Part shown: piece after piece, positions 6,201 to 63,308 of the stretch
Position numbering within the stretch: the first letter of the stretch is position 1
Layout of the letters: the number at the start of each line of letters is the position of its first letter
From: Candidatus Doudnabacteria bacterium
GTDB lineage: Bacteria > Patescibacteriota > Doudnabacteria > UBA920
DNA: 64,000 nucleotides
Reading direction: 5' to 3'
NCBI GenBank assembly: GCA_963768175.1
Contig: CAVYGQ010000001.1
Coordinates: 318,305-382,304, forward strand
Notes under the pieces: generated by a model
The model's database searches: none
Told to the model about the DNA's origin: nothing
What the model saw: the letters and a program-made list of their open reading frames with translations, nothing else
Translations under genes and position numbers: made by a program

Positions 6201-8564
6201 ATGTCAAAGAGAGACTTATCAGAACAAGATATCTGTTCCAAGTTTATCCTTCCCGCAGTAACGTCTGCGGGTTGGGATTTGCAAACCCAAATCCGAGAAC
6301 AATATTCGTTTACGGCAGGTCGTATTATTGTGCGAGGAAAAACTATAGCCAGAGGCAAAAGAAAGCGTGTAGATTTTCTTCTTTATTACAAATCAAATTT
6401 TCCAATTGCCGTTATAGAAGCAAAAGAAAATAATTATTCCGTGGGTGCGGGTATACAACAGGCTTTGGGATATGCGGAATCGCTCGATGTACCTTTTGTT
6501 TATAGTTCCAATGGTGATGGATTTTTGGAACACGACAGATTATCAACCAGTGGTCCAAAAGAACAAGAAATTTCTCTGAATAGTTTCCCTTCCCCCAACG
6601 AGCTTTATAAAAGACTAAAGGATTCAAATAAATTATCCCCACAGGCCGAAACTATATTACAGCAAGATTATTTTCAGGAGTTAGGCGGCAAAGAGCCTCG
6701 TTATTTCCAACAGGTTGCTATCAACCGCGCAGTTAAAGCCATTGTTAACGGCCAAAAACGTCTTTTGCTTGTGATGGCAACGGGTACGGGTAAAACTTAT
6801 ACCGCATTTCAAATAATTTGGAGACTGTGGAAGTCTAAATTCAAAAAACGCATTCTTTTTTTGGTTGACAGAAATATTCTTGCGGACCAAGCCATTATGA
6901 ATGATTTTAAACATTTTGGCGATAAAATGGTTAAAATCCAGGATCGTGCAGTAGATAAATCCTATGAAATTTACCTCGCTCTTTACCAGGGCATAACCGG
7001 CAAGGAAGAAGAAAAAAATATTTTTAAACAATTTTCACCAGATTTTTTTGACCTTATTATAGTAGACGAATGTCACCGGGGAAGCGCAAGAGAAAACGCG
7101 CTTTGGCATGATGTTTTGGATTACTATAAAAATGCCACTCAAATAGGATTAACCGCTACCCCAAAAGAAACCAAAGACATTTCCACGCAAACCTATTTCG
7201 GCGAGCCCATTTACACCTATTCTTTGCGCCAAGGCATAGATGACGGATTCCTTGCGCCATATAAAGTTGTTCGTGTAACAATAGACCGGGACGTAGAAGG
7301 CTACCGGCCAGAGCAAGGGAAAATTGACAAGCATGGCAACGAAGTCCCGGACAGAATTTATAACCTGAAAGATTTTGACCGCAACCTTGTTATCGACGAG
7401 CGTACCAAACTTGTTGCCCATAAAATAACAGAGTATTTAAAGGCAACTGACAGAATGCATAAAACCATTGTTTTTTGTGTTGATATAGACCACGCTGAAC
7501 GAATGCGTCAGGCTTTAGTTAACGAAAATCCAGACGAAGTAGCTAAAAATCGCAGGTATGTAGTTAGAATTACCGGCGAAAACCCGGAAGCCCCAATTGA
7601 ACTGGACCATTTTATAGATCCGGAAAGCCCATATCCGGTAATAGCAACCACCTCAAAACTTATGACTACAGGTGTAGACGCTCAAACCTGCAAAATTATT
7701 GCTTTGGACACAAATATACAATCCATGACAGAATTTAAGCAAATCATCGGCCGGGGAACACGCGTGCGGGAAGATTATGGAAAGCTTTTTTTTACGATTT
7801 TAGATTTTAGGGCGGCAACCGAACTTTTTGCTGACCCAAATTTTGACGGCGATCCCGTGGTAATTTACGAACCAAAAAAAGGCGAAAGCATTGTACCGCC
7901 AGAAGAAACGACGCCGGCTGAATTAAATAAAGAGCAGACTGAAGAAGCTGGAAATTTGGATTGGAATCCATTAACAGACGGCGGTCAAATTACGCAGGGA
8001 CCAGTTCAAAAATATTATGTCAATAGTGTTCCGGTTAAAGTTATTAACGAACGTGTACAATACATTGGTGGAGACGGAAAACTTATTACTGAATCATTAA
8101 CAGATTTTACCAAAAAAAGCATCTTGCAGGAATATCGTTCTTTAAATGAGTTTTTAACCGCCTGGTCCCACGCGGAGAAGAAAGAGGCTATAATTAAAGA
8201 ATTGGAAGATCATGGCGTGCTGTTTGAAGCTCTAAAGGAAGAATCGGGAAAAGATTTAGATCCATTTGACTTGGTTTGCCATATTGCTTTTGGTAAACCG
8301 CCGCTCACCCGAAAGGAACGCGCTGAAAATGTAAAAAAGCGTGATTATTTTACAAAATACGAGGGCAAGGCCAGGGAAATAATAGACGCGCTTTTAGAAA
8401 AGTATGCCGATCAGGGCATAACCGCGATTGATGACATTGGTGATTTGGGGGTTGAGCCTTTTTCGGAATTCGGAACGCCTTATGAAATTGTAAATGGTAT
8501 TTTTGGCGGGAGAACACAATATATTAAAGTTATTAATAAAATTCAGGAAGCATTATACGTATAA
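6201..8564 (+). CDS. hsdR: Type I restriction enzyme R subunit (HsdR)
   Basis: N-terminal restriction-endonuclease domain (VDFLLYY...IAVIEAKE), SF2 helicase motifs I (LLLVMATGTGKT) and II (DECHRG), and a typical HsdR C-terminus. Confidence 0.85.
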   Translation: MSKRDLSEQDICSKFILPAVTSAGWDLQTQIREQYSFTAGRIIVRGKTIARGKRKRVDFLLYYKSNFPIAVIEAKENNYSVGAGIQQALGYAESLDVPFVYSSNGDGFLEHDRLSTSGPKEQEISLNSFPSPNELYKRLKDSNKLSPQAETILQQDYFQELGGKEPRYFQQVAINRAVKAIVNGQKRLLLVMATGTGKTYTAFQIIWRLWKSKFKKRILFLVDRNILADQAIMNDFKHFGDKMVKIQDRAVDKSYEIYLALYQGITGKEEEKNIFKQFSPDFFDLIIVDECHRGSARENALWHDVLDYYKNATQIGLTATPKETKDISTQTYFGEPIYTYSLRQGIDDGFLAPYKVVRVTIDRDVEGYRPEQGKIDKHGNEVPDRIYNLKDFDRNLVIDERTKLVAHKITEYLKATDRMHKTIVFCVDIDHAERMRQALVNENPDEVAKNRRYVVRITGENPEAPIELDHFIDPESPYPVIATTSKLMTTGVDAQTCKIIALDTNIQSMTEFKQIIGRGTRVREDYGKLFFTILDFRAATELFADPNFDGDPVVIYEPKKGESIVPPEETTPAELNKEQTEEAGNLDWNPLTDGGQITQGPVQKYYVNSVPVKVINERVQYIGGDGKLITESLTDFTKKSILQEYRSLNEFLTAWSHAEKKEAIIKELEDHGVLFEALKEESGKDLDPFDLVCHIAFGKPPLTRKERAENVKKRDYFTKYEGKAREIIDALLEKYADQGITAIDDIGDLGVEPFSEFGTPYEIVNGIFGGRTQYIKVINKIQEALYV

Positions 8565-8567
8565 AAT

Positions 8568-9995
8568 ATGTCTATTCAAACTGCGGTAAAATCCATTCAA
8601 GATATAATGCGTAAAGATCAAGGCGTGGACGGCGACGCTCAGCGTCTTTCGCAATTGGTGTGGATGTTATTTTTAAAAATTATTGACGACCAGGAAACGC
8701 AGTTTGAACTTGAAAACCCCAAATATAAATCGCCAATCCCTAAAATTTTGCGCTGGCGCGGATGGGCAGCAGACGCAGAAGGCTCCACAGGAGAGGAATT
8801 GTTGGATTTTATAAATAACCATCTTTTTCCAGGACTGAAAAATCTCAAAGTCCAACCTAGTGACAAATTGGGTCAGTTAATTAAAGAGGTGTTTATTGAT
8901 TCAAATAATTACATGAAGTCTGGTACTTTGATTCGCCAGGTCGTAAATAAAATTAATGAGGTTGATTTTAACAAAAAGGACGACCGCCATCATTTTAACG
9001 AAATCTACGAACATCTTTTAAAAGAACTGCAAGGTGCCGGAAATTACGGGGAATTTTATACGCCGCGGCCTTTAACTCGCTTTGTTGTAGAAATGGTTAA
9101 TCCGCAATTAGGAGAAACCGTGCTTGATCCTGCTTGTGGTACCGGCGGATTTTTAGTTAATACTTTGGAATATGTTGGCCATAATCAGGTTAAAAACAGA
9201 AAAGATCAAAGGCTGCTTGAAAGCACTATTCATGGTATGGAGTTAAAGCAATTGCCTTTTACTTTAGCCATTACCAATTTAATTTTGCATGGCGTCCAAA
9301 TGCCCGACCAAATTATCCGCGGCGACGCGCTTTCCAAGCCGTTGCGCGAGTATGGCCCCAAAGACAGGGTAGATGTTATTGTGGCCAATCCTCCTTTTGG
9401 CGGTTCAGTTAAAGACGGTACGGAAGGTAATTTTCCGCTTGAATTTCGTACTAAAGAAACTGCGGATTTATTTTTAGTGCTGTTTATGCATTTACTTAAA
9501 CCCACCGGGCGGGCGGGGATTGTTCTGCCAGATGGCACGCTGTTTGGCGAAGGCGTAAAAACTAAAATTAAAGAAAAATTGCTAGAAGAGTTTAATTTGC
9601 ATACTATTGTGCGTTTACCGCAAGGTGTTTTTAGCCCGTATGCCGGAGTAAACACTAATCTTTTGTTTTTTGAAAAGGGAAACCCGACCAAAGAAATTTG
9701 GTATTATGAACTTCCTTTGCCAGAGGGTATGAAGCAATATACCAAAGGCCGGCCAATTAGAATAGAAGAATTTGACCCGGTAAAAAAATGGTGGAAAAAT
9801 CGTAAAACGAACGGAAATTCCTGGAAAGTTTCCATAAAAGAAATTAAGGATAGAAATTATAACCTGGACTTTAAAAACCCGGCGAAAAAAGAAGATTTAG
9901 CGCATAAAGATCCAAAAGAAATTTTGGGAAATATTTTAGACTTAGAAAACAAGATAATAGGGATTTTAGATACGGTAAAAAAGGAGATTAAGTAA
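8568..9995 (+). CDS. hsdM: Type I restriction-modification methyltransferase subunit (HsdM, N6-adenine)
   Basis: HsdM N-terminal domain, SAM motif LDPACGTGGFL, and catalytic IVANPPFG motif. Confidence 0.85.
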   Translation: MSIQTAVKSIQDIMRKDQGVDGDAQRLSQLVWMLFLKIIDDQETQFELENPKYKSPIPKILRWRGWAADAEGSTGEELLDFINNHLFPGLKNLKVQPSDKLGQLIKEVFIDSNNYMKSGTLIRQVVNKINEVDFNKKDDRHHFNEIYEHLLKELQGAGNYGEFYTPRPLTRFVVEMVNPQLGETVLDPACGTGGFLVNTLEYVGHNQVKNRKDQRLLESTIHGMELKQLPFTLAITNLILHGVQMPDQIIRGDALSKPLREYGPKDRVDVIVANPPFGGSVKDGTEGNFPLEFRTKETADLFLVLFMHLLKPTGRAGIVLPDGTLFGEGVKTKIKEKLLEEFNLHTIVRLPQGVFSPYAGVNTNLLFFEKGNPTKEIWYYELPLPEGMKQYTKGRPIRIEEFDPVKKWWKNRKTNGNSWKVSIKEIKDRNYNLDFKNPAKKEDLAHKDPKEILGNILDLENKIIGILDTVKKEIK

Positions 9996-9996
9996 A

Positions 9997-10239
9997 ATGA
10001 AAAAGAATTGGGATAAATACGACGGGAAGACAAAATATGACGAGGGTGGTCGTGTTTGGGATGGGGTTATTACTTTTGTTCTAAATTTTTTTGCTATTAT
10101 TTTTGTTTTTATTGGATGGATCTTAAAACTTATTTGGAAATTTGTTAAAGATGTTTTACATAGCATGTATGGAAAGGTAGTGGCACTTATTGCGAGTGGC
10201 GTTTTGATATATTTTTTATCTCATTTTTTTAGAAAATAA
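9997..10239 (+). CDS. Small two-TM membrane protein embedded in the R-M operon
   Basis: 80 aa with two hydrophobic helices, between hsdM and the Shedu-like gene. Function unknown. Confidence 0.35.
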   Translation: MKKNWDKYDGKTKYDEGGRVWDGVITFVLNFFAIIFVFIGWILKLIWKFVKDVLHSMYGKVVALIASGVLIYFLSHFFRK

Positions 10240-10254
10240 TTTGGGAATGTTTAT

Positions 10255-11439
10255 TTGATACAAATTATGAATTTTGATTGTAATAATTTCAGAATGATTA
10301 CTTATAACGGATTAAGCCTTTATTTCGATAAAGGTTGTCGTTTTCATGAATACTTTCACCATAGGTTAAAAACAAAAAAATTTCGTTATTACAGAAATGT
10401 TCTCCAATTTTTAGCGGAAAATGTAGAGGCAAGATTATATTTTACTTTGAATGAGGAAGTCAAAAATTTTCAAAAGGTTGAAGGAGGCTTTTTGGTAAAT
10501 ATGGGTTCATATCAAGAGTTTTGTCGTACTATCGGAAGCAAAACAGGTGGAAGGTTAAAAGCTTTTCTCGGACAAAATATTAATTTAAAAGACCTTGATA
10601 TCACTGATATTGAACGAGATAATTTTATTATTGTTCATGCAACTGAGAAAAATATTTTAGAAGCAATAAAAAATTTAAGTGCCGAGGTTCAAATAAATAT
10701 TTTAAACTTTCTAAAGAACTTACACCCTACGGACCAGGGTGGAATAATACCGCCCCAAGAAATAAGTGGCGCCAAACTGATCGAAGCATTGGGAAAGTTT
10801 TTAACAGATAAAAACGTACAGCAGGCTTTTTTTTCAAATTTAACGAAAGTCCAAATTGATATTCTAAAATCACATATTTTATTTTTGAAAAACAATCTAG
10901 ATAAAAATGAGACCTTCATTCAAGACTGGATAGACGAAGATGGTGGTAAATTTAGGAAGCAGCGATGTCTTATATTTGGCCTAGAATATGTGGACCCAAA
11001 GAGGGAAGGGCAAGTGGCGGGAAAATTTTTTGATATTCTAGCCGAACATGATTTAGAACATCATGTTATTTTTGAATTAAAGTCGCCTAAGGACGATACA
11101 TTTAAAGTGGTTGAAAATCAAACACAAGCTGGCGGTATTTCTACTGAATATTCCTTATCTCCACAACTAAGTAGGGCGATACCTGAGGTGCTGGGTTATA
11201 GAAAAATGTATGAAAACGCGCAAGGTGAAGAATTACAAAAATTTGGCGTAAACGTCAAGAAAAAGATTTCAAAATGTGTTATAGTGGTTGGCACACAAAA
11301 AGATGATCTGGTTTGGAAAGAAAATTTTGAGCGCCTTCAGAATAGTTTAAATGGAATCGAATTATTAACATATAACCATCTTATTGACAGACTGCAAAAT
11401 ACCGTAAAAAATTTGGAAGAAAACACTTCAACCCAATGA
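10255..11439 (+). CDS. Shedu-like (DUF4263-like) PD-(D/E)xK nuclease-fold protein embedded between hsdM and hsdS
   Basis: The C-terminal half reads ETFIQDWID...LIFGLEYVD...FDILAEHD...HVIFELKSP...QLSRAIPEVLGY. It has a D...ExK nuclease motif plus a downstream Gln, in an arrangement resembling the DUF4263 domain of Shedu SduA. Called from memory of the family, not from a database search. Confidence 0.4.
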   Translation: MIQIMNFDCNNFRMITYNGLSLYFDKGCRFHEYFHHRLKTKKFRYYRNVLQFLAENVEARLYFTLNEEVKNFQKVEGGFLVNMGSYQEFCRTIGSKTGGRLKAFLGQNINLKDLDITDIERDNFIIVHATEKNILEAIKNLSAEVQINILNFLKNLHPTDQGGIIPPQEISGAKLIEALGKFLTDKNVQQAFFSNLTKVQIDILKSHILFLKNNLDKNETFIQDWIDEDGGKFRKQRCLIFGLEYVDPKREGQVAGKFFDILAEHDLEHHVIFELKSPKDDTFKVVENQTQAGGISTEYSLSPQLSRAIPEVLGYRKMYENAQGEELQKFGVNVKKKISKCVIVVGTQKDDLVWKENFERLQNSLNGIELLTYNHLIDRLQNTVKNLEENTSTQ

Positions 11440-12599
11440 ACAATTGGCCAACAAAAAAATTAGGAGAAATTTGCTCAATAAAAAAAGGAAAAAAACCTGT
11501 ACTGCGAAAAATTGCGATTGCGGGTGATTTGCCATATTTAATTGCAAAATTTTTAAGAGGGACTAAGGAGCCAGAATACGCATCGGCAGACGATAAGGGT
11601 TCGGTAGTGGTACAAGAAAATGAAACAATCATAATTTGTGACGGTTCAAATTCCGGTGATATTTTTACGGGTTTTAAAGGAATATTATCTTCGACAATGG
11701 GTAAAATTAACCATGAAGATAACATTGACACCCAGTACCTTAAAATATTTTTGGTCTCAAATTTTGATTTGTTTAATGGAGCTAAAAAAGGTGCAGCAAT
11801 TCCGCATCTTGATATAAAAGCTTTATACAATCTTAGAATCCCGCTCCCGCCTATTGTAGAACAACAAAAAATTGTAAAAAAAATTGAGGAACTTTTTGGG
11901 GAAATAGATAAGGCGCAAAAATTGCGCGAAGAGGCGCAAAAAGACGCCGCCGCCCTTGTCCCCGCCGCTTTGCATCATATTTTTTCGCGGGGAAAGAAAA
12001 AGGGTTGGAGAGAAATATCATTAGGTGATAAAAAGTATATCAAGATGACAAGTGGGGGGACTCCATCAAGAGGAAATAGATCTTATTATGACGGAAGTAT
12101 TGCCTGGCTAAAGTCTGGCGAATTAAATGATAATCAGAATATTCTGGATTCTGAAGAGCATATTACAGAAGATGCTATAAAAAATTCTAGCGCCAAGGTT
12201 TTCCCGAAAAATACTGTACTATTTGCTATGTACGGTGCTACTGCAGGAAAAACAGGTATTTTGGTTAAAGAAGCAGCTACTAATCAAGCCGTAGCTGGTT
12301 TAATTTGTTCTGAAGAAAGTATTTACTATAGATATGTATTTCAGTGTCTGATGAATATCAGAAACGATGTCATAGCTCAAGCGTGGGGTGGAGCACAACC
12401 AAATTTAAGCCAGACAATCATAAAAAAATTCAAAATTCCACTTCCGTCTCTTCCCGAGCAAAAAAAGATCGTGGAATATTTGGATTCGCTTTCGGAAAAG
12501 ACGAGGAACTTACAGAAGTTGCAGGAGAAGACGGCAGGGGATTTTAAGGCTTTAAAACAATCCATTCTTCACAAAGCCTTCGCGGGAGAATTAATCTAA
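11436..12599 (+). CDS. hsdS: Type I restriction-modification specificity subunit (HsdS)
   Basis: Two target-recognition domains separated by conserved coiled-coil repeats (LPEQKKIVEYLD...). Overlaps the upstream gene by 4 nt. Confidence 0.8.
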   Translation: MNNWPTKKLGEICSIKKGKKPVLRKIAIAGDLPYLIAKFLRGTKEPEYASADDKGSVVVQENETIIICDGSNSGDIFTGFKGILSSTMGKINHEDNIDTQYLKIFLVSNFDLFNGAKKGAAIPHLDIKALYNLRIPLPPIVEQQKIVKKIEELFGEIDKAQKLREEAQKDAAALVPAALHHIFSRGKKKGWREISLGDKKYIKMTSGGTPSRGNRSYYDGSIAWLKSGELNDNQNILDSEEHITEDAIKNSSAKVFPKNTVLFAMYGATAGKTGILVKEAATNQAVAGLICSEESIYYRYVFQCLMNIRNDVIAQAWGGAQPNLSQTIIKKFKIPLPSLPEQKKIVEYLDSLSEKTRNLQKLQEKTAGDFKALKQSILHKAFAGELI

Positions 12600-19962: not shown

Positions 19963-21738
19963 ATGCCAAACGACATCCCCGCCAAAGGCGGAAAAACATT
20001 TTTTAAATCTTTGCTCTCCGGCAAAAAAAAGTATATGGTCTTAATTGTTTTGCTTATTGCCGGCTATTTTATTTATAAGCACTATTCGGGCTCCGGCGCC
20101 CCCACGCGCTATGTTTTAGGCCAGGCCAGCACACAAACTATTGTCACTTCCGTTTCCGGGACCGGACAGGTCTCGCAAAACAGGACGGTTAACATAACCG
20201 CGCCAAGTTCCGGCAAACTTACGGCTATAAGCGTAATACAGGGCCAGCAAATTAAAGCCGGACAAACCATAGCAATAGTAGATGAAACCAACAACACCAT
20301 TGCGCTAAACCAGGCTAAGGCATCCCTTGCCAGCGCCCAAGCCAGTTACGACCAGGTTATGGCCGGAGCCACCAGCCAAAGCATCCAGCTGTCCCAGCTT
20401 ACCGTGCAGTCCGACCAGCAGGCTTTGGATAATGCCAGTACCAGTTTGGCAACCGTAATCAAACAACAAGACCAGGCCGTGGCCAACGCGCTAAGCGCCT
20501 ACTTAAACGCGGGATTACAGGCCGTTCCGAGTTCCGGCAACAACAGCAACGGAACCATCGCCATTTCAGGAACCTATACCGGCACCGACCAGGGCGCATA
20601 TACCATTACCACCTACAACACCGGCGGGGGATTGGAATACGTAGTCAGCGGGCTGGAAACGGCCAGCGGGCCCATAAACAAAGTCTCGCCCATAGCTTTG
20701 GGAACCAAAGTCCTGTTTATGCAATTTACCGGAAATTTTTTGAACAACGACAGCTGGACGGTCTCTATCCCAAACTTATTGGCCTCAAGCTACAGCTCCG
20801 CTTATAACGCTTACCAAAATGCCTTAACCAGCCAGACCTCGGCGGAAGCCACCGCCCAAAACCAGGTACAAAGCGCCCAGAACAAACTACAGCAGGACCA
20901 AATAAACCTAAGTGTCCTTGAGGAGCCGCCCACCAACCAGCAGGTAGAAAGCGCCCAAGCTTCTTTGACGCAGGCCCAAGCCCAGCTGCAAAACGCGCAA
21001 ATCGCCTACCAAAATAATATTTTAAGTTCTCCTTTTGACGGCCAAGTCGCGCAGTTAAACAACCAGGTCGGCGACCAGGTTACCGCCTCCACAATTATCG
21101 CGGTGGTGGTCAGCCCGCAGTCGTTGGCCGTAATACCGCTTAACGAAGTGGACGTGGCAAAAGTTAAACTCAGCGATAAAGCCACTATGACTTTTGATGC
21201 CGTGAACGGCCTGACCATTACCGGCACCGTGGTGGAAATTGACAACATCGGCACGGTCAGCCAGGGAGTGGTAAACTATAACGTAAAAATTGCTTTTGAC
21301 ACCGAAGATCCGCGCGTTAAACCGGGTATGAGCGTAAATGTTTCTGTCATTACCGATATCCAAGCCGACGTTTTGGCCGTGCCCAACTCGGCCATCCAGA
21401 CCCAAGGAACCCAAAACTATGTGCAAATTTTGGATCCGACCAAAACCCAAAGTACTACGGGCGTAACCGGCGTAACCTCATCTGTGATACCGACTAATGT
21501 AGTCGTGCAAACCGGCGCCTCCGACGACACCTACACGCAAATTACCAGCGGCAGCCTGAAAGCCGGCGATACCGTGGTCACGCAAACCATTGCGACCACC
21601 GCGACTAAATCCGCGGCCTCCACGGCAACCAGCGCTTTAAGGCTCGGCGGTGGCGGAGGATTCGGCGGCGGAGGCGGAGCCGCGGTCATAAGAACAACCA
21701 CGGGCGGCAGCGCAGCTCCAGCAGCGGCGGGAAGATAG
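19963..21738 (+). CDS. Efflux periplasmic adaptor (HlyD/MacA family) with Gly-rich C-terminus
   Basis: N-terminal TM, long coiled-coil (QAKASLASAQASYDQ..., LTQAQAQLQNAQIAY), and biotinyl-lipoyl-like and beta-barrel segments typical of membrane fusion proteins. Confidence 0.7.
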   Translation: MPNDIPAKGGKTFFKSLLSGKKKYMVLIVLLIAGYFIYKHYSGSGAPTRYVLGQASTQTIVTSVSGTGQVSQNRTVNITAPSSGKLTAISVIQGQQIKAGQTIAIVDETNNTIALNQAKASLASAQASYDQVMAGATSQSIQLSQLTVQSDQQALDNASTSLATVIKQQDQAVANALSAYLNAGLQAVPSSGNNSNGTIAISGTYTGTDQGAYTITTYNTGGGLEYVVSGLETASGPINKVSPIALGTKVLFMQFTGNFLNNDSWTVSIPNLLASSYSSAYNAYQNALTSQTSAEATAQNQVQSAQNKLQQDQINLSVLEEPPTNQQVESAQASLTQAQAQLQNAQIAYQNNILSSPFDGQVAQLNNQVGDQVTASTIIAVVVSPQSLAVIPLNEVDVAKVKLSDKATMTFDAVNGLTITGTVVEIDNIGTVSQGVVNYNVKIAFDTEDPRVKPGMSVNVSVITDIQADVLAVPNSAIQTQGTQNYVQILDPTKTQSTTGVTGVTSSVIPTNVVVQTGASDDTYTQITSGSLKAGDTVVTQTIATTATKSAASTATSALRLGGGGGFGGGGGAAVIRTTTGGSAAPAAAGR

Positions 21739-27699: not shown

Positions 27700-28143
27700 T
27701 TATCCAATTTGCTCGGTATGAATTTCCGGCAAACCCTCATCCCCATGGCCTATGATTTCCACAAAAACCGTCTTGACTTCCAAATCCGGATGCTTAGTTA
27801 ATATTGCGAGTCGGGCAGAATATAAAGAATCGACGATAACTTTTTTCTCGGCAGTCGGGTCTTTAGGCGCGCCTTTTAAGGCAAAGCCGCCGCAGTTGCT
27901 GTGGCCGACGATAATAACTTGGCTAATACCATGCACCTTTAACGAAACATTTTGCAAAAGCCACCAAAAACTATCGGGGTCATACGGCTGATGAGGCTCG
28001 GTCATCCACAAAGACGGCCCGGCGTAAGTTAAAACTTCGTATTCGCCCGATGTTAAGCTAACTTTTTGGGCAATTTTTATTTCATTTTCCCCCTGAAGCC
28101 GGGGATCCATACAGTTAATTAGGAGCGCGCGATAGGTATGCAT
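27700..28143 (-). CDS. Beta-class carbonic anhydrase-like protein
   Basis: CMDPR and GHSNCGG correspond to the beta-CA zinc-ligand motifs (C-x-D-x-R, H-x-x-C-G). 147 aa is short for the family. Confidence 0.45.
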   Translation of the reverse strand: MHTYRALLINCMDPRLQGENEIKIAQKVSLTSGEYEVLTYAGPSLWMTEPHQPYDPDSFWWLLQNVSLKVHGISQVIIVGHSNCGGFALKGAPKDPTAEKKVIVDSLYSARLAILTKHPDLEVKTVFVEIIGHGDEGLPEIHTEQIG

Positions 28144-28197
28144 CTTTTTTGAAATCTAATCACTTAGCACTAAGCACTAAGCACTAACAACTTCCCC

Positions 28198-29478
28198 TTA
28201 CGTTCCTTCCTGCCAACTCGCCAAATACTTTTTTTGCGCAGGGGTTAAAACGTCAATTTTAACCCCAATTGATTTCAGCTTTAATTTGGAAACACGCTCA
28301 TCAATTTCGGCAGGTACATCATAAACTTGATTTTGAAGCTCCTGATAATGTTTAACCAGCCAGTCACAAGTTAGCGCTTGGTCGGCAAACGACATATCCA
28401 TAACGGCGGAAGGATGCCCTTCGGCCGCGGCCAGGTTCATGAGGCGGCCTTCAGCGATGAGGAAAAGTTTGCGCCCGTCTTTCATAGTATACTCCATCAA
28501 GCTATCCCTGACCTGCTTCATGCTTTTTGCTTCATGCTTCATGTCCTTCACATTTATTTCCACGTTAAAATGCCCGCTGTTGCCCAAAATCGCCCCATCT
28601 TTCATCAATTTAAAATGTTGCTTGGTAAGAACGTCTTTATCTCCGGTAGCGGTCAAAAATATATCGCCAATTTTTGCCGCCTTGGGCATTGGCATAACAT
28701 CAAAACCGTCCATGGCGGCCTGAAGCGCCGGCAGGGGATCTACCTCTGTGACAATCACGCGCGCGCCCAAACCCTTAGCCCTAAGTGCCATGCCCTTGCC
28801 GCAGTAACCGTAGCCGGCCACAACCAAAATTTTTCCGGCCAAAAGGATGTTGGTGGCGCGGAGCAAACCGTCCATAGTGCTCTGGCCGGTGCCATAATAA
28901 TTATCAAACATGTGCTTGGTCGGGGTGTCGTTTATGGCCACAACCGGATATTTTAACGCGCCGTCTTTGGCCATGGCCTTTAGCCGGATTATGCCGGTAG
29001 TGGTTTCTTCCTGGCCGGCCCAGACGGTTTTTAAAAGCTCGCTTCGTCCGGAATGGATAAGCGATATCAAGTCCGCGCCGTCGTCTATGGTAATCTGCGG
29101 TTTAAAATCCAAAACTTTATTTAGCGCCCAATAATAATCTTTCTTGGAAATATGCTTCCAGGCAAAAACGTTAATGTTCAGCTCCGCCAAAGCCGCGGCT
29201 ACGTCATCCTGCGTAGACAGGGGATTAGAGGCGCACAAGGCCATTTTTGCCCCGCCCGCCGCCAAAGCCTTCATTAGCACCGCGGTCTCTTTGGTCACGT
29301 GGAGACACGCCGCTATGGTTATGCCTTCAAAAGGCCGCCGCTTTTTTCCGCCAGAGGCGGATCCGCCTTTGGCGGAGAAATCTTCCGCGATAATCCGCAA
29401 AACCGGCATTTCCCGCTCGGCCAAAGCAATATTAATATGCCCTTGCTTGGCCAGTTTAATGTCTTTTACTTTGTGCAT
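28198..29478 (-). CDS. ahcY: Adenosylhomocysteinase
   Basis: NAD-binding GYGxxGKG (VVAGYGYCGKGMA), conserved LHVTKETAVL and HFNVEI blocks, and length 426 aa. Contains an in-frame GGSASGG palindromic insertion. Confidence 0.85.
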   Translation of the reverse strand: MHKVKDIKLAKQGHINIALAEREMPVLRIIAEDFSAKGGSASGGKKRRPFEGITIAACLHVTKETAVLMKALAAGGAKMALCASNPLSTQDDVAAALAELNINVFAWKHISKKDYYWALNKVLDFKPQITIDDGADLISLIHSGRSELLKTVWAGQEETTTGIIRLKAMAKDGALKYPVVAINDTPTKHMFDNYYGTGQSTMDGLLRATNILLAGKILVVAGYGYCGKGMALRAKGLGARVIVTEVDPLPALQAAMDGFDVMPMPKAAKIGDIFLTATGDKDVLTKQHFKLMKDGAILGNSGHFNVEINVKDMKHEAKSMKQVRDSLMEYTMKDGRKLFLIAEGRLMNLAAAEGHPSAVMDMSFADQALTCDWLVKHYQELQNQVYDVPAEIDERVSKLKLKSIGVKIDVLTPAQKKYLASWQEGT

Positions 29479-30142: not shown

Positions 30143-30178
30143 TGAGGACAGTCCTCTGGACGTCCAGAGGACTGTCCT
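30143..30178. repeat. 36-bp perfect GC-rich palindrome (intergenic)
   Basis: gaggacagtcctctggac|gtccagaggactgtcctc: perfect 18+18 arms with nested sub-palindromes. Confidence 0.7.
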
Positions 30179-30327
30179 CGCTTGATGTTCACTAACACCA
30201 ATTATATCAAAAAAACTTCTTATTTAAAAGCCTTTTAAAACCGATTTTAGCCCTAACATAAGCCGGAAAAAAACTGAAACAATCTTTTGAACAATTACGT
30301 ATTAATTTATACAAGGAGCTAGTTGAT

Positions 30328-42814: not shown

Positions 42815-43672
42815 TTGTTTGTGGCTAAAGCCGACTTACAATTTAACTTTTTGGCTTTCCTCAAAGGCCTTTGGCTGCTCAAAGAAAAGCCGTTACGCTA
42901 TGGCACCAAAAAATTCATTTTGGCTTTTTGGAAATACTATCTGCGCATACAATACTCAAACTTGGGCAAGCCGATTGTGGTTTCCTTACCGATTGACAAA
43001 AAAATTCCGTCCATACCTTCGGCAATAAAAACTTACAATAGCTATTTGCCGGTTTTTGGGGGCTGCGCTTACTGGGCCAGCCGTGAATTCGGAAAAAGAT
43101 CGTTGCAAGACATCGGCAAATTTTTTGAAGGGCTTAATGAATATTACAAGGATGCCGCGATAATTTTTAAAAACGCGCCCACAACCTGCGGCAGATCCGG
43201 ATATGGCGGAATTTTAACGGGAATAATAAGGCTTTTTGACCGCGACCTAAACGCGGCGCCAAGCCTCCATGTAGTATTGGTTGCCAGCTGGTACATGAAT
43301 TTTACGGAGATGATAAATACTTATGCCAACAGCTCCACTTCTTATGACGGCATCAAACAAAAAATTTTTAACCAAACCGTCAAAATAATTGAATCAACTT
43401 TGTTAACCAAACAGCACTGCGTAATGGATATCGCCCTGGCTTTTACCTTTCTTTCATGTCGTGACAGAAACTTTACCCAAGAGCGGGCAAAAAAATTTAC
43501 ATACGCTCTGTTTTCCCAATTTGATTATAGGATGGGCAAACAAACTGTGGCGGAAATCCAATCGGCAATTTTGGACATTTATTCCCAAACCTTAGCATTA
43601 TGCGAAGCCAGCGGGGATAAAAAAGGCCTTAATATCATAATCCCATTCCTTCAAGGATTACGCACTACGTAG
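42815..43672 (+). CDS. Hypothetical protein
   Basis: 285-aa ORF. Confidence 0.4.
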   Translation: MFVAKADLQFNFLAFLKGLWLLKEKPLRYGTKKFILAFWKYYLRIQYSNLGKPIVVSLPIDKKIPSIPSAIKTYNSYLPVFGGCAYWASREFGKRSLQDIGKFFEGLNEYYKDAAIIFKNAPTTCGRSGYGGILTGIIRLFDRDLNAAPSLHVVLVASWYMNFTEMINTYANSSTSYDGIKQKIFNQTVKIIESTLLTKQHCVMDIALAFTFLSCRDRNFTQERAKKFTYALFSQFDYRMGKQTVAEIQSAILDIYSQTLALCEASGDKKGLNIIIPFLQGLRTT

Positions 43673-44528: not shown

Positions 44529-45701
44529 ATGGAACCGCTAGCCAATAAAATTCGCCCGACGTCGCTTAAAGGATTTGTCGGCCAACAGCATCTGGTCGGG
44601 CCGGATAAACCTTTAAAGATTGCCGTTGAACAAAAACATTTGTTCAGCTTTATTTTTTGGGGCCCGCCGGGGGTAGGGAAAACCACCCTGGCGCGGATTT
44701 ATGCCAAAGCGGTTAACGCGGAATATTTTGAACTGTCCGCTGTTTCCGCGGGTAAAGATGACATCCGGAAAATTGTTGACCGCCCGCCGATGATGGGACA
44801 GCCGAAAATATTGTTCCTTGATGAAATCCACCGCTTTAACAAAGCCCAGCAGGATTATCTATTGCCGTTTGTGGAAACCGGCAAATTATATTTAATCGGC
44901 GCCACCACGGAAAATCCTTCGTTTGAAGTGATCCCGCCTTTGCTTTCCCGTTGCAGGGTGTTTGTGCTAAACGAGTTGGCCGATGACGAAATCGAAAAAA
45001 TCATCGTTCAGGCCTGCAGAAGTGTCCCCTCTGCTGCAGAGGGGACACTTCTGCCAAAGAACAAAATAGATAAAAAATCCAAAGACTGGCTGGTACAAAT
45101 GGCTAACGGCGACGCTCGCCAGGCCATCAGCATGATAGAAAACACGGTAAATCTATACGGAAAAATTACCGTTGAAACCTTAAAAGACACCCTGCAATCC
45201 AAATTTTTGCGCTACGATAAAGCCGGTGAAGAACACTACAATATCATCAGTGCGTTTATAAAAAGTATGCGCGCCAGCCAGCCGGACGCGGCGCTCTATT
45301 ATATGTGCCGGATGATTGCTGCCGGCGAAGATCCGCTGTTCATCGCGCGGCGCATGGTGATTTTCGCCAGCGAGGACATCGGCTTAGCCCAGCCCACGGC
45401 CTTGGTGGTCGCCAACGCCGTATTCCGCGCCTGCGAAACCATCGGCTACCCCGAATGCGCCGAGAACCTTGCCCACGGGACCGTTTATCTGGCGCTGGCC
45501 AAAAAGGACCGCAGCGCCTACAACGCCTACCTGGCCGCGATGAAGGATGCCAAGGAATACGGCAACCTGCCCGTGCCGCTTAAAATCCGCAACGCACCCA
45601 CCAAGCTTATGAAAGAATTAAAATATGGGGAAGGTTATGAAAGTTATGATAAAGATGATTATCTGCCGGAAAAATTAAAAAGGAAAAAATATCTAATTTA
45701 G
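44529..45701 (+). CDS. rarA: Replication-associated recombination protein A (AAA+ ATPase)
   Basis: Walker [12 protein letters not shown], Walker [13 protein letters not shown], and conserved [10 protein letters not shown] and [11 protein letters not shown] blocks. Carries a 37-bp perfect palindrome in-frame. Confidence 0.85.
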
Positions 45702-45718: not shown

Positions 45719-46771
45719 ATGACGCAACTTAAAAAATTTTTAAAAAAATACGCCTATCGACTGCCATCGGAACTAGTTGCGCAAACTCCGGCCAAACCGC
45801 GCGATGCTGCGCGGCTTTTGGTTTACAATCGACGGTCAAAAAAAATAAAATTTGATCGATTTTTTAATCTTGCGGGATATTTACCCAAAAACGCCGTCCT
45901 GGTCTTTAACCAAACCAAAGTCTGGCCGGCGCGGCTAACAATAATCAAACCAACCGGTGGCAAAGTCAAAATTTTGTACATTGATGCCGATAAAAAAAGC
46001 GGGCTTATAAAAATTATCAGCAACAAGCATCTCCCAGTAGGGGAGCGTGTTGATTTTTTGCGCGGCCGCGCAAAAAATCAACACCTTAAAGTCATCGGCA
46101 AAAAAAACGGCTTTTATTATTTAAGACCAAATTTTCCAATATCCCAAATCACCAAAATCATGACAAAATACGGCGTAACGCCGCTACCACCTTACATTAA
46201 AAATTCCCCTTTATCGGAAATCCAACGCCGCAAAGAGTACCAATCGGTCTTTGCAAAAACCGGTTTATCGGTAGCCGCGCCCACAGCGAGTTTGCATTTT
46301 ACCAAACGATTAATCAACCAGCTTCAAAAGCAGGGGATAGGCATCGCTTTTGTTCAGCTTGATGTAAACTTAGGAACTTTTGCGCCTTTGCGCGAAGAAC
46401 AAATTAAATCTGGAAAACTTCACCAGGAGTTTTACCGGATAAATAAATCAACGGCGCGATTTTTGAATCAAGCCAAAGCGGCTGGCCGTCCCATTATTGC
46501 CGTTGGCACCACCGTGGTCCGCACCCTGGAATCCGCTGCAAAAAATCAACGGCTGACAAAACTAACGGGGAATACAGATCTGTTTATTAAAGAAAATTAT
46601 AAGTTTAAATTTGTTGACGGCCTTATTACCAACTTCCATGTTCCCAAATCCAGCCTGCTGATGCTCACTTCCGCCTTTGTCGGCCGAAAAAAATTATTTG
46701 ATCTATACAAGCAGGCCATCAGTAAAAACTTCCGCTTCTTCTCCTTCGGCGACGGCATGTTAATTTTTTAG
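45719..46771 (+). CDS. queA: S-adenosylmethionine:tRNA ribosyltransferase-isomerase
   Basis: YRLPSELVAQTPAKPRDAARLLVY N-terminus plus conserved GTTVVRTLES and HVPKSSLLML blocks of QueA. Confidence 0.8.
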   Translation: MTQLKKFLKKYAYRLPSELVAQTPAKPRDAARLLVYNRRSKKIKFDRFFNLAGYLPKNAVLVFNQTKVWPARLTIIKPTGGKVKILYIDADKKSGLIKIISNKHLPVGERVDFLRGRAKNQHLKVIGKKNGFYYLRPNFPISQITKIMTKYGVTPLPPYIKNSPLSEIQRRKEYQSVFAKTGLSVAAPTASLHFTKRLINQLQKQGIGIAFVQLDVNLGTFAPLREEQIKSGKLHQEFYRINKSTARFLNQAKAAGRPIIAVGTTVVRTLESAAKNQRLTKLTGNTDLFIKENYKFKFVDGLITNFHVPKSSLLMLTSAFVGRKKLFDLYKQAISKNFRFFSFGDGMLIF

Positions 46772-49954: not shown

Positions 49955-50935
49955 TTATCCCAGACGACTTCCAATAAATTGCGGATAGCCGTTTAAAAAG
50001 TCGCCGATGGCAACTTCCGATTTCCCCTCAAGCTGAAGTTGTTTAATTTGCAAAAAAGTATTACTGCCGCAAACCGCCACTCCGTTTTCAAGCACTGTGC
50101 CCGGCATTCGTGTCATTCGTGTGCTATTCGTGTCATTCGTGTCGCTTAAAATACAATCGGTAATCTTTAAAATTTTACCGTTCCAAGTTGTCCAAATTCC
50201 AGGCCAAATATAAAAAGCGCGAAATTGATTATAAATTTCCGGAGATGTGCGCTGCCAATCAACTTTGCCGTCGGCTTTACTGATTATTTTGGTATAAGAA
50301 GCTTTGACTTCATCCTGGGGCAGGGGAGTAATTTTGCCGCTGGCATAATCCTCAACAACCCGATTAATCAACCGGGCGGACAGTCTGGCTAGCTTGTCGG
50401 ACAAAGTGAAATAGTTATCATCGGGATCAATTCCAACTATTTCCTGTGCCAGCAGCGGGCCGCCATCAATTTTTTGGTCCAACAAAAATATAGACGTGCC
50501 GGTTTGCTGGTCGCCATTAAGCAAAGCAAACTGGATGGGCGAAGGGCCACGATACTTTGGCAAAATTGAAAAGTGGACGTTAATCGTTTTGTATCGAGGC
50601 AGGCCGATAATTTCCGCCGGCAAAATTTTGCCGTAAGCCACCACTACAAAAATATCCGCGTTTAAATTTTGCAGCTGCCGTAAAAATTCCGGATTCTCCT
50701 TCAAATTTTCCGGCTTTAAAACAAACAGCTTTAAATCTTTTGCCAAAGCCGAAACCGGGCTTTCCTGCAAGTCCTGCGACCTTCCCGCTTCAGCGTCCGG
50801 CTTGGTAACCACAGCTAAAATTTTGTGCTGTTTATTTAAAGTTTCCAATACCGGCAAAGCTTCGTTAGCCGTGCCAAAAAATACAATTTTTCCGCCAAAG
50901 GCGGACCCGCCTCCGGCGGGCATTTTCTCATTCAT
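49955..50935 (-). CDS. fmt: Methionyl-tRNA formyltransferase
   Basis: N-terminal KIVFFGT, formyltransferase core (HFSILPKYRGPSPIQ), and C-terminal domain. Carries a GGSAFGG palindromic element at the 5' end and an in-frame tandem repeat. Confidence 0.85.
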   Translation of the reverse strand: MNEKMPAGGGSAFGGKIVFFGTANEALPVLETLNKQHKILAVVTKPDAEAGRSQDLQESPVSALAKDLKLFVLKPENLKENPEFLRQLQNLNADIFVVVAYGKILPAEIIGLPRYKTINVHFSILPKYRGPSPIQFALLNGDQQTGTSIFLLDQKIDGGPLLAQEIVGIDPDDNYFTLSDKLARLSARLINRVVEDYASGKITPLPQDEVKASYTKIISKADGKVDWQRTSPEIYNQFRAFYIWPGIWTTWNGKILKITDCILSDTNDTNSTRMTRMPGTVLENGVAVCGSNTFLQIKQLQLEGKSEVAIGDFLNGYPQFIGSRLG

Positions 50936-51498
50936 AATTTCCTCATTACTTTTCTTAAAACTTCCGCCTCCAACCGACAGTCAACCAAAGCGTTGTGCAA
51001 CTGGTTTTTACCGATTTTTATTTTAAATATTTTAATTAAATACTCCAGCCCAAAACCGGCAAAGTCTTTTTTGGAATTAAGCTTGTTGCGTTTGGCCAAA
51101 AAGCCGTAAAATAGAGCCCACAAATCAAAATAATGGTAGTCAAACGGCCACTTAACTCCAGCTTTTTTATAAGCATCCGTTAAAATCCGTTTGTCGTTAA
51201 AACCCACATAAAAAGCCTGGGTTACGTTGTGGGGAAACGCGCGGTTGAACTTTTTTATCGCCTGGCTCAAAGTCGGCGCGTCTTTGACCATTTCCCAGGT
51301 AATTTTATTCACCGCCATGGACTTAAGGTCGCGGCTTTTCCACTTGGACGGTTTGACGTAAGTGCTAAAATATTTTTTTTCTTTTAAAGTTTTTTTGTCC
51401 AAAAGCACCGCGGCGATTTGCAGCAAATCGTGCTTTTTGGGAACATCAAAACCGGAAAACTCGGTATCAATTAGCAGTAAATCCTTGTGAAAGTTCAT
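50932..51498 (-). CDS. DEDDh 3'-5' exonuclease (DnaQ-like)
   Basis: Exo I LLIDTEFSGFD, Exo II FNDKRILTD, Exo III HNALVDC. Confidence 0.65.
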   Translation of the reverse strand: MNFHKDLLLIDTEFSGFDVPKKHDLLQIAAVLLDKKTLKEKKYFSTYVKPSKWKSRDLKSMAVNKITWEMVKDAPTLSQAIKKFNRAFPHNVTQAFYVGFNDKRILTDAYKKAGVKWPFDYHYFDLWALFYGFLAKRNKLNSKKDFAGFGLEYLIKIFKIKIGKNQLHNALVDCRLEAEVLRKVMRKL

Positions 51499-61934: not shown

Positions 61935-63308
61935 ATGAAATACGCTTTTATTTTAGGGAGGGTTTATACTTTATCGGTGGCCGAACTTTTGGCTGTTTTG
62001 GAAAAAACAGACGCCTCTTTAGGCTTAACGGGTGAACCTGTGCAAATTTTGGAAGCCTCGGAAGAAGTTTTAATCGTAGAAACCGGAAAACCCCTTAACG
62101 TGGAAAGGCTGCAAAAAAAGCTCGGCGGGGTAATTAAGATTCTTGAGGTAGTTGATGTGATAAAAAAACGCGAACGGGATTCCATTAATTTTGCCCTAAA
62201 ACATTATTTTAAGCCCGGCATCCTTAAAAAACAGTTTTTTAAGGACTACAAAGGCAAAGTGCAGTTCGGCCTGAGCATTTATATTTTAGATATGGATCTG
62301 CTTAAACGCCCCGGGCCGAATCCGAGGGACAAAAACCAAGGAGTTTTTTCCGCCGGAGGCGGATCCGCCTTCGGCGGAAATTCTGTTTTTAGCGAGCCCA
62401 AAAGAGTAGGCATGATGATAAAAAACGGGCTTACCGAAAGCGGCGCCAGCGTCAGGCTGGTCTTGCCCGAATACAATTCCCTATCGCTGGCTTCGGTAGT
62501 GGTAACAAAAAATTTGCTTCTGCAAAAAGGCGCGGAGATTTGCATCTTGGCCGCCAAAGACAATATTTTTACGGCTAAAACTTTAACAGTGCAGGACTTT
62601 GAAGATTACGGCCGCAGGGATTATCAACGGCCTGCCAGGGACGAGAAACAAGGCATGATCCCCCCAAAAGTGGCGCAAATTATGCTTAACCTCTCGGGCT
62701 GCAAATCCGGGGACAGCATTTTAGACCCGTTCTGCGGCGTCGGCACAATTATCCAGGAAGGCTTGTTGCTTGGCTTCCGCATGATTGGCAGCGATATAAA
62801 TAAGCAGGCCATAAAAGGCAGCGAACAAAATTTGGAATGGTTCAGAAACCGCTACAAAATCGCTCCGGGAAAATACGGAGTGGAGGTTTCCAACGCCGCC
62901 AAGGTCGCCGATTTGATAGATAAATCCAAAAGCCAAATTTCCGCCATTGTCACCGAAGGCACCCTGGGGCCAATATACGGCCAATACCCCAAAGCCGACG
63001 AGATTGCCAAAAATTTTAAGGACCTGGAAAAACTTTATAAAGCCAGTTTTAAAGAATTTGCCAAATTTCTCCCCAAACAAGCCAAAATTGTCATGTGCCT
63101 GCCGGCTTACCGGAAAAGCCGCGACCAATACGAAATGTTCCCCAGCCTTGACTTCGCCCAAGCTTTAGGATATAATTTAGTGGATATTATTTCCCCATCT
63201 GTTGTAAAAAAACTTAAATTCCTCAAACTGACGACCAGAAACACGGCTATTTATGATCGCAAAGATCAGATTGTTGCGAGAGAGATAGTAATCTTTGAAA
63301 AAATATAA
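61935..63308 (+). CDS. THUMP-domain class I SAM-dependent RNA methyltransferase (Trm11/RlmL-like)
   Basis: Trimmed to MKYAF at 61935. Motif I ILDPFCGVGTIIQEG and acidic motif II MIGSDIN. Carries a GGSAFGG palindromic element in-frame. Confidence 0.5.
   Translation: MKYAFILGRVYTLSVAELLAVLEKTDASLGLTGEPVQILEASEEVLIVETGKPLNVERLQKKLGGVIKILEVVDVIKKRERDSINFALKHYFKPGILKKQFFKDYKGKVQFGLSIYILDMDLLKRPGPNPRDKNQGVFSAGGGSAFGGNSVFSEPKRVGMMIKNGLTESGASVRLVLPEYNSLSLASVVVTKNLLLQKGAEICILAAKDNIFTAKTLTVQDFEDYGRRDYQRPARDEKQGMIPPKVAQIMLNLSGCKSGDSILDPFCGVGTIIQEGLLLGFRMIGSDINKQAIKGSEQNLEWFRNRYKIAPGKYGVEVSNAAKVADLIDKSKSQISAIVTEGTLGPIYGQYPKADEIAKNFKDLEKLYKASFKEFAKFLPKQAKIVMCLPAYRKSRDQYEMFPSLDFAQALGYNLVDIISPSVVKKLKFLKLTTRNTAIYDRKDQIVAREIVIFEKI

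Follow-up and report, generated by a model that had tools for sequence, protein, structure and literature searches.

A 30-bp double-hairpin palindrome inserted in frame in a Trm11-like methyltransferase gene of a Doudnabacteria genome: a probable case of minimal, hairpin-dependent mobile DNA

Rickettsia palindromic elements (RPEs), which Ogata et al. reportedly found inside protein-coding genes in 2000, are about 100–150 bp long, fall into several sequence families and are found only in Rickettsia; to our knowledge, they have no known transposase. The IS200/IS605 elements have distinct ends with guide and cleavage sequences outside their hairpins, and their insertion takes place 3′ of a tetra- or pentanucleotide on one side only. 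RPEs lie in frame in functional protein genes and are translated as extra surface segments, and repetitive extragenic palindromes (REPs) have also been reported inside genes, often those of replication or repair (PMC3733652). Short GC-rich hairpin elements of mitochondria, such as the GC clusters of yeast and the double-hairpin elements of Allomyces, are found in protein and rRNA genes of an AT-richer genome, where they occupy variable regions and are retained in transcripts; the Allomyces elements have no flanking duplications (PMC2800124). In this study, we report a 30-nt palindromic element at positions 62349–62378 of a 64,000-nucleotide stretch (hereafter, the window) of a Candidatus Doudnabacteria bacterium (contig CAVYGQ010000001.1), inside the gene of a Trm11-like methyltransferase (61935–63308, plus strand). 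In our view, the element is probably a very small, non-coding and selfish mobile DNA, a 30-bp palindrome of two abutting 15-nt hairpins that depends on these hairpins and is inserted and excised without a footprint.

The element (TCCGCCGGAGGCGGATCCGCCTTCGGCGGA) consists of two abutting mini-palindromes of 15 nt, TCCGCCggaGGCGGA/TCCGCCttcGGCGGA (here and below, a slash within a sequence marks a junction). Unit 1 (62349–62363) has a stem of TCCGCC and GGCGGA around the loop GGA (NGA-type), unit 2 (62364–62378) has the same stem around the loop TTC (TTN-type), and both units jointly form a near-perfect 30-nt palindrome centered on GGATCC. Predicted folding energies as RNA were −24 to −30 kcal/mol (z of −3.3 to −5.1), those given for the element at 62349–62378 being −25 to −30 kcal/mol (z of −4.7 to −5.1). 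The 15-nt unit TCCGCCNNNGGCGGA was found six times in the window with at most one mismatch, when 0.16 matches were expected and none of 100 shuffles reached six, and a 21-mer over the unit junction likewise had six matches versus 0.00 expected. Chance is excluded as the origin of the element. Read on the plus strand, the element encodes SAGGGSAFGG, residues 139–148 of the methyltransferase. A string of 14 codons quoted for it in the initial annotation is indeed present in the frame of the open reading frame (ORF) that starts at ATG 61935, and corresponds to G136–N149 of the protein (GVFSAGGGSAFGGN); it extends from 62340 to 62381 and not from 62338 to 62383, a difference of 2 nt at each end.

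The insertion was delimited by comparison with the best 120 of 614 methyltransferase homologues, which come from Doudnabacteria-like Patescibacteria. Only the window protein (P0001) and three others (P0002–P0004) carry the ten-residue insert, with the peptides SAGGGSAFGG, SAGGGSSLGG, SAEGGFGFGG, and AAGGGSAFGG, respectively, and it is lacking in 116 of the 120. The copies of the three other carriers are partly decayed, and the one in locus L123 (TCCGCCGGAGGCGGATCGTCCCTTGGCGGA) has three substitutions and a disrupted second hairpin. The nearest non-carriers are 91–93% identical to the window protein; one of them (P0006, 93%) reads GVF/NSVF at the site, while P0008 has two extra residues at the point of insertion that may be a remnant. 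In nucleotide sequence, the empty sites read GGAGTCTTT/AATTCTG in L121 and GGAGTCTAT/AATTCGG in L122, and the filled site of the window is GGAGTTTTT followed by the 30 nt and AATTCTG. The left flank TTT (62346–62348) and the right flank AAT (62379–62381) lie outside the insert and are already present in the empty sites. Since moving the boundary one base either way results in extra mismatches, the insert is exactly the palindrome, with no target duplication. The initial annotation had taken the segment for a copy of a repeated palindrome inserted in coding sequence. Both the orthologue comparison and two further full copies in the window agree with this, and the alignment gave the opposite of the outcome that had been named as speaking against it, i.e., orthologues with the same segment and no palindromic signature.

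The second full copy (29347–29376) is in ahcY (28198–29478, minus strand), where the orientation of the element relative to the gene is the opposite one and the protein reads SAKGGSASGG. AhcY matched the solved SAHH/SIHH structures 7r3a and 7r37 from end to end but with ten extra residues, iaedf[SAKGGSASGG]kkrrpfeg, which fall between the conserved blocks of these structures. The third copy (50891–50920) lies in fmt (49955–50935, minus strand), just after the ancestral start codon (M/PAGGGSAFGG/KIVFFG), and one of its units is a C..G variant. The similarity of Fmt to solved structures begins at residue 16. Given that about 100 of the best 120 Fmt homologues start with MKIVFFG or MNIVFFG while carriers read M-x-x-x-M/PAGGGSAFGG/KIVFFG, the element was placed between the ancestral start codon and codon 2. 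In the fmt carriers (window 50920–50950), the ORF starts four codons before the ancestral ATG and shares ATGA with an RNase T-like gene as an overlap. The empty relative L131 has unrelated sequence upstream, where 88 nt separate the end of the RNase T-like gene from fmt. The strong hairpin right behind the old start codon may have shifted initiation. In none of the three filled/empty comparisons (methyltransferase, ahcY, and fmt) was a target duplication present. The three full copies are all read as TCC GCC nnn GGC GGA, because the palindrome is symmetric, so that the register is the same despite the different strands, as had been annotated initially. The further claim that they share one peptide applies to Fmt, with GGSAFGG as part of PAGGGSAFGG, but not to AhcY, which has GGSASGG because the element has two distinguishable orientations; in the ahcY copy, GGSAFGG appears only in the non-coding reading of the plus strand.

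The same sites are used recurrently. Among the best 120 homologues of AhcY, inserts were found at three sites: A (DF/../KK) in five proteins, B (PF/../KN) in one, and C (YTM/../KDGRK) in four and, as a half copy, in another. The carriers are scattered over a neighbor-joining tree, with empty sisters adjoining. At site A, L126 and L127 (gene identity to the window of 73%) hold copies whose stems are perfect and in which only loop bases deviate from the window copy, while the closer L128 (85%) has a clean empty site, GATTTC/AAAAAG. At the fmt site, perfect stems and the sequence CCCGCCnnnGGCGGG/TCCGCCnnnGGCGGA are common to the window, L129 (gene identity of 76%), and L130 (67.5%), and L131 is empty (ATG/AAAATT). 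Carriers that share a site in ahcY or fmt are overall 66–76% identical, and P0277 gives a hint of opposite orientations at a single site. Four-fold degenerate sites of ahcY were identical in 8/9, 9/9, and 8/9 cases inside the element vs. 44–46% outside, and those of fmt in 9/9, 8/8, and 8/8 cases vs. 41–43% outside. With synonymous divergence saturated, perfect stems are therefore not a result of neutral vertical inheritance. Decayed versions occur alongside the pristine ones, such as PREAGSAFGG, SAGGESAFGG, SPYGGSPVGG, and TPTAESRFAG in Fmt. In addition, presence is mosaic: the window genome has the methyltransferase, AhcY (site A), and Fmt copies, the genome of P0002, P0122, and P0249 has the first two and lacks that in Fmt, and the genome of P0028 and P0243 lacks the methyltransferase copy and has the Fmt one (the last two of these three genome assignments are inferred). 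This leaves two explanations: either a few tolerant sites that match the target receive and lose pristine copies again and again, or selection keeps the stems intact at some sites. The clean empty sisters and the decayed fossils favor repeated placement and removal. Excision is deduced here from clean empty sites and patchy carriers.

The element is not restricted to these genes. A family scan of one genome per species with the pattern CCGCCNNNGGCGGNNCCGCCNNNGGCGG, in which positions 1, 15, 16, and 30 of the 30-mer were left unconstrained, revealed the same 30-mer at at least 120 loci; the family figures below are those among the matches listed, and the statistics on ends, loops, registers, and flanks refer to copies from genomes of less than 60% GC. 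As labelled, the carriers belong to many lineages of Patescibacteria, to Omnitrophota (including a single-cell genome) and Ignavibacteriota, and also to Kiritimatiellae, Verrucomicrobia, Lentisphaerae, Planctomycetes, Chloroflexota, and Bacteroidota, together with metagenome-assembled genomes (MAGs) labelled Gammaproteobacteria. The copies of Ignavibacteriota are on 1.6-Mb long-read contigs, and mis-binning is therefore excluded. An assembly or adaptor artefact was rejected as well, considering that copies were recovered from short-read, long-read, and single-cell assemblies made independently and that they decay together with the genes that host them. Matches in cultured high-GC actinomycetes and similar organisms have non-canonical ends and look like chance.

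The four unconstrained positions were T, A, T, and A in 78 of 112 copies. The outer pair T..A changes to C..G in a covarying manner within the 15-nt unit in 20 copies, vs. 1 for the pairing of the long hairpin, and thus it is the mini-hairpin that is under constraint. NRA predominates in loop 1 and TYN in loop 2. The association of C at position 7 with G at position 24 (odds ratio 8) marks a subfamily. A strong anti-correlation links positions 8 and 23 (p 3e-6), with 41 G/T and 27 A/C copies vs. 10 G/C and 12 A/T, the asymmetric configuration accounting for 76% vs. the 50% expected. G/T and A/C are one configuration as viewed on either strand, and the element is therefore intrinsically polar, TCCGCC-NGA-GGCGGA TCCGCC-TTN-GGCGGA. 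This polarity fits the copying of a template better than the de novo formation of palindromes. Symmetric end-addition at a double-strand break, by which the two halves would be made independently, was rejected because of the same anti-correlation, which indicates one defined asymmetric sequence. The peptide is SA[R/G]GGSA[F/L]GG in one orientation and SA[K/E/Q]GGSASGG in the other, the latter being about twice as common in genes (26 vs. 12). The left flank has T at frequencies of 0.70, 0.89, and 0.67 (positions −3, −2, and −1) and the right flank A at 0.58, 0.79, and 0.48 (positions +1, +2, and +3); as these bases pre-exist in the empty sites, the TTT/AAA-like flanks are a preference of the target.

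In some MAGs, the 30-mer is part of longer intergenic repeats. In one of Kiritimatiellae (L009, 4438–4765 and 6259–6586; L004 and L079 are also listed), a composite repeat of about 190 nt has it as the first module and contains a second long hairpin as well, GTCATTCCGAGCG...CAGGATGAC; the Verrucomicrobia MAG L043 has only the flanks immediately around the 30-mer in common with it. In one of Omnitrophota (L052; L086, 6107 and 7397; L112, 713 and 2425), the 30-mer tips a longer palindrome, GGTTACAGGTTT...AAACCTGTAACC, that is predicted to form a T-shaped hairpin reminiscent of the terminal repeats of parvoviruses. The core may therefore be a recognized module in several contexts. A search of the whole window with Rfam at gathering thresholds gave four tRNAs only, and a permissive scan of the insert site gave nothing credible. 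No published description of the element was found in the literature when searching for its sequence, its peptides, or palindromic or REP/RPE elements in Patescibacteria; the literature matches to GGCGGATCCGCC are, judging by their titles, apparently cloning primers with a BamHI site.

It must be considered whether the double hairpin, as mRNA or as DNA, is a structured element selected as a binding or regulatory site, its coding copies being adaptive through, for instance, the binding of a conserved protein, ribosome pausing between domains, or mRNA stability. We regard this as unlikely. In its favor, orthologues that are 66–76% identical have perfect stems at identical sites, where C..G variants are compensatory and loops are free, the stem sequence is conserved across phyla, and the RNA fold is strong. 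However, most orthologues, even the nearest ones, are without the insert (116/120 methyltransferases, around 100/120 Fmt, and most AhcY), copies decay freely in several lineages, the genes are unrelated and any tolerant loop or terminus is used, non-coding and other-frame copies occur, and there is no Rfam match. Neither is a terminator the kind of function suggested by the flanks, in which a T-run lies upstream and an A-run downstream on both strands; an intrinsic terminator was rejected on these grounds and because copies lie inside genes.

Spread of the element without a dedicated enzyme, by template switching or microhomology copying from an existing copy, is likewise improbable in our judgment. 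TTT and AAA would act as the microhomology and the hairpin would stall the polymerase. This would agree with the lack of target duplication, with flanking bases that the target already has and that agree with those beside other copies, and with the fact that no linked transposase was seen in the window or at about 105 loci; moreover, unrelated perfect palindromes inside window genes hint at a replication that tolerates or generates palindromes. Nevertheless, a microhomology of 2–3 nt is very little for the repeated exact use of the same codon junctions in several lineages, and it explains neither the clean loss in sister lineages nor the near-identity of the 30-mer across phyla.

The distribution of reading frames is informative on the fate of the copies inside genes. 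The SAxGG register (TCC GCC nnn GGC GGA) was found in 58 of the 69 copies located within open frames of at least 150 aa, window copies included, while the registers are about even in short-ORF contexts. In all three registers, stop codons are possible only via the loops, and loops with stop codons were found almost only outside long ORFs. Besides this frame filtering, many copies are within 20 residues of the N-terminus or at the C-terminus of their hosts, which include DnaG, UvrA, UvrB, Mfd, PheT, class I and class II aminoacyl-tRNA synthetases, ArsA, and an amylase. From the frame statistics, the in-gene copies appear to be translated. It is very unlikely, in contrast, that the 30 nt remain untranslated, through removal from the mRNA or ribosomal skipping, as in gene 60 of phage T4 or the mitochondrial "byps." A GC-rich hairpin insert in coding sequence, with a stable hairpin at the site, does recall the mitochondrial cases, but the register bias, the stop-free loops of in-gene copies, and a length that is a multiple of 3 are not expected from either process, and decayed copies stay in frame as ordinary codons. 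Finally, selection of GGSAFGG as a Gly/Ser/Ala-rich linker acquired convergently is hardly credible, for although it is a plausible flexible peptide and lies in loops and termini, the codons are fixed at the DNA level across unrelated genes and phyla, the same DNA is found in non-coding regions and other frames, the peptide changes with orientation (SAKGGSASGG vs. SAGGGSAFGG), and the nearest orthologues function without the insert.

The host protein of the element studied here has 457 aa from ATG 61935, the start preferred here over the upstream TTG 61878 of the ORF list. Pfam detected PF01170 at residues 236–400, and the Pfam THUMP model had no match in this protein. The AlphaFold model (mean pLDDT, the predicted local distance difference test, of 85) had as top Foldseek matches the archaeal Trm11 structures 5e71 (E 4e-22) and 6zxw (E 1e-20), followed by Trm14, TrmN, and RlmKL. 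The model, Foldseek, and Pfam coincide in an N-terminal ferredoxin-like domain (NFLD) plus THUMP module followed by a Rossmann-fold methyltransferase (RFM, UPF0020), as in the Trm11 class. The protein had been annotated as a THUMP-type methyltransferase, which holds because Foldseek places the model with archaeal Trm11, in addition to the PF01170 match. It had also been proposed that the insert occupies the linker between THUMP and the methyltransferase core, and here the model disagrees: residues 139–148 are inside the N-terminal NFLD/THUMP module, in the sole long disordered loop (124–150, with pLDDT below 50 at 135–148), flanked by a strand (108–117) and a helix (120–123) on one side and by a helix (151–168) on the other. 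Between the insert and the methyltransferase domain there are about 70 structured residues (151–222) and a second disordered linker (224–235), so that the insert is some 90 residues ahead of the methyltransferase core. With respect to the enzyme, it is most likely a neutral passenger. Other short lineage-specific inserts also recur in these proteins (SFAKA[ST]EGKP-like, RSTGSGQV, and LRQGSGPAV), namely in the methyltransferase linker of P0013, P0030, P0040, and P0043 and in the AhcY proteins P0150, P0198, and P0219. They may be translated traces of further families of small elements in these genomes.

Considering the above, we favor a selfish element whose propagation depends on its hairpins, and propose the following course of events. 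As shown above, exactly 30 bp enter seamlessly at TTT/AAA-like junctions, and a copy that falls in a stop-free register (on either strand, 30 being a multiple of 3) of a surface loop, linker, or terminus only adds a flexible ten-residue SAxGGSAxGG; copies of this kind would survive purifying selection even in essential genes, and those in other registers or in structured regions would be purged. One such copy would have landed in the disordered and indel-rich loop of the Trm11-like tRNA methyltransferase in the recent ancestry of the Doudnabacteria-like lineage, probably with no consequence for the enzyme. Given that stems stay perfect and covary while loops drift, propagation would depend on the two mini-hairpins, presumably in single-stranded DNA. 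Insertion and excision would both be free of footprints, and hence the same sites could be pristine in distant relatives, empty in sisters, and decayed in others. Such behavior would resemble the single-strand peel-and-paste of HUH/Y1 transposases (IS200/IS605 and REPs with their REP-associated tyrosine transposases, RAYTs).

Several observations weigh against this proposal. Neither a transposase nor any other mobilizing gene was detected among the window ORFs scanned with Pfam (most of those of at least 110 aa), and an all-against-all clustering of ORFs from about 105 loci of 8 kb revealed no gene family recurring beside the element. The target is roughly symmetric, unlike the one-sided targets of IS200/IS605. 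For REP-like repeats, as a rule species-specific, it is unusual that an identical 30-mer is present in different phyla. Translation is deduced from frame statistics. Additionally, perfect stems at one site in deeply diverged orthologues, including the C..G variant common to three fmt copies, could reflect selection on a functional hairpin.

The Pfam domains detected in the window ORFs included those of a type I restriction-modification system, NYN, NERD, RadC, and Phd. The restriction-modification operon (6201–12599) encodes HsdR, HsdM, and HsdS, with a protein of the Shedu SduA_C nuclease domain between hsdM and hsdS. A gene of the "23S rRNA intervening sequence protein" family (PF05635; 37126–37512) is located near tRNA-Trp and tRNA-Thr, and the window has no rRNA gene. 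A phage or plasmid vector was discarded, as only two exact copies were present in 2.9 million viral contigs and the PLSDB plasmids and INPHARED phages gave only partial matches at chance level. One of the two viral-contig copies (L125, 390–419) lies in frame at the C-terminal end of an ORF for a group II intron-type reverse transcriptase (YADD motif).

Two further sites of the window are related to the element with less certainty. A single 15-nt unit, CCCGCCAAAGGCGGA, is present at 19978–19992 and encodes PAKGG in frame, residues 6–10 of a HlyD-like protein (19963–21738, plus strand); it may be a monomer or a chance match. At site C of AhcY, P0194 has the half copy PAYGG. Monomers therefore exist, or result from a dimer losing one unit. 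The monomer was rejected as the basic unit, since what look like single units in the loci are for the most part dimers that have decayed. A possible decayed copy, ACAACCTGCGGCAGATCCGGATATGGCGGA, is found at 43181–43210, in an ORF with no Pfam match (42815–43672); it retains 18 of 24 stem positions and the same codon register but is a weak candidate, given that about 0.1 sites per window reach at least 17/24 by chance.

The window also contains unrelated repeats. There is a perfect palindrome of 38 nt with 19-nt arms and no spacer in queA (46047–46084; ORF 45719–46771), and another of 39 nt with 19-nt arms and a 1-nt spacer in a rarA/mgsA-like gene (45016–45054; ORF 44529–45701). Both are of unrelated sequence and lie in variable stretches, and they were rejected as inserts of the same kind because they are not clean insertions with respect to solved homologues. 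An intergenic perfect palindrome of 36 nt (30144–30179), GAGGACAGTCCTCTGGAC/GTCCAGAGGACTGTCCTC, has two internal mini-palindromes, i.e., the double-hairpin design with a different sequence. Downstream of the ahcY stop (28198), about 3.5 tandem copies of the heptamer AGCACTA (28160–28190) lie in the spacer between this gene and the start (28143) of a carbonic-anhydrase-like ORF (27700–28143).

If the proposed selfish nature is correct, this would be one of the smallest DNA elements with mobile behavior, without duplication or footprint, and one that is common, almost unchanged, to several phyla known mainly from metagenomes; an activity that recognizes hairpins for insertion and excision would then await discovery. 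A wider reading, which we put forward tentatively and find on balance somewhat doubtful, is that 30-bp double-hairpin elements form a pan-phylum class which, in uncultivated bacteria (Patescibacteria, Omnitrophota, the Planctomycetes-Verrucomicrobia-Chlamydiae phyla, and Ignavibacteriota), actively and seamlessly moves in and out of essential genes at the same codon junctions. It would imply an undiscovered and widespread machinery for sequence-specific DNA insertion and excision, and loops of ten residues derived from the element would add a layer to the proteins of these organisms. On a practical level, SAxGGSAxGG, or TCCGCCnnnGGCGGA twice, can be used as a marker to clean alignments and annotations of the Candidate Phyla Radiation, and the recurrent insertions flag tolerant loops and termini in essential enzymes (AhcY, Fmt, Trm11, UvrA/B, DnaG, and aminoacyl-tRNA synthetases). 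In gene calling and in phylogenies, the ten-residue indels may pass for lineage-specific features; their distribution being patchy and recurrent, they are therefore poor phylogenetic characters.

When compared with the systems described above, the element shares with RPEs the in-frame insertion of a palindrome in genes that remain intact (Trm11-like methyltransferase, AhcY, and Fmt), but it is only 30 bp long, has a double hairpin, and keeps the same stem sequence in many phyla. REPs and their paired form, REPINs (REP doublets forming hairpins), are GC-rich palindromes of 20–40 bp arranged as an inverted pair of hairpin units, here two of 15 nt in 30 bp, and their hairpin-dependent single-strand mechanism without target duplication (RAYT, Y1 HUH) is the best mechanistic analogy. 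Like intragenic REPs, the element has repair and replication hosts, here UvrA, UvrB, Mfd, and DnaG. Unlike REPs and REPINs, it has no GTAG or CGTC end tag, the oriented flanks being marked by nothing but a left TTT and a right AAA; its units abut without a spacer, its sequence is common to phyla and not species-specific, and its copies are mostly intragenic in Patescibacteria (3/3 full window copies, and 69 family copies in frames of at least 150 aa), although intergenic copies do occur in Omnitrophota and Kiritimatiellae. As for RAYT genes, which REPs flank in the same genome, none was seen here in the window ORFs scanned or in the approximately 105 loci of 8 kb.

Miniature inverted-repeat transposable elements have terminal inverted repeats, target-site duplications, and 50–500 bp, in contrast to the 30 bp and the absence of duplication at three comparisons reported here. 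With the miniature IS200/IS605 elements (palindrome-associated transposable elements, PATEs), it would have in common the dependence on hairpins and the seamless insertion and excision, both of which the clean empty sites suggest here; however, its hairpins extend to the ends of the element and both flanks are constrained. The mitochondrial double-hairpin and GC-cluster elements are similar in architecture and in their location in variable loops, but they are organellar, lineage-restricted, and unrelated in sequence, and the yeast GC clusters reportedly duplicate their target. Bypass inserts (T4 gene 60, Magnusiomyces "byps") are also short and structured and do not destroy the protein, yet they are skipped by the ribosome with no constraint on frame or stops, while the register and stop statistics of the present copies indicate translation. 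In summary, the element behaves as RPEs and intragenic REPs do and resembles the mitochondrial double-hairpin and GC-cluster elements in its architecture. Within the selfish palindromic repeats tolerated in genes it is distinct, because it departs from each known group in defining features, whether in its size, in the lack of end tags or of a target duplication, in not being mainly extragenic, or in not being restricted to organelles, and it is unusual in its minimal size, its near-identical sequence across phyla, and the repeated seamless use of identical codon junctions.

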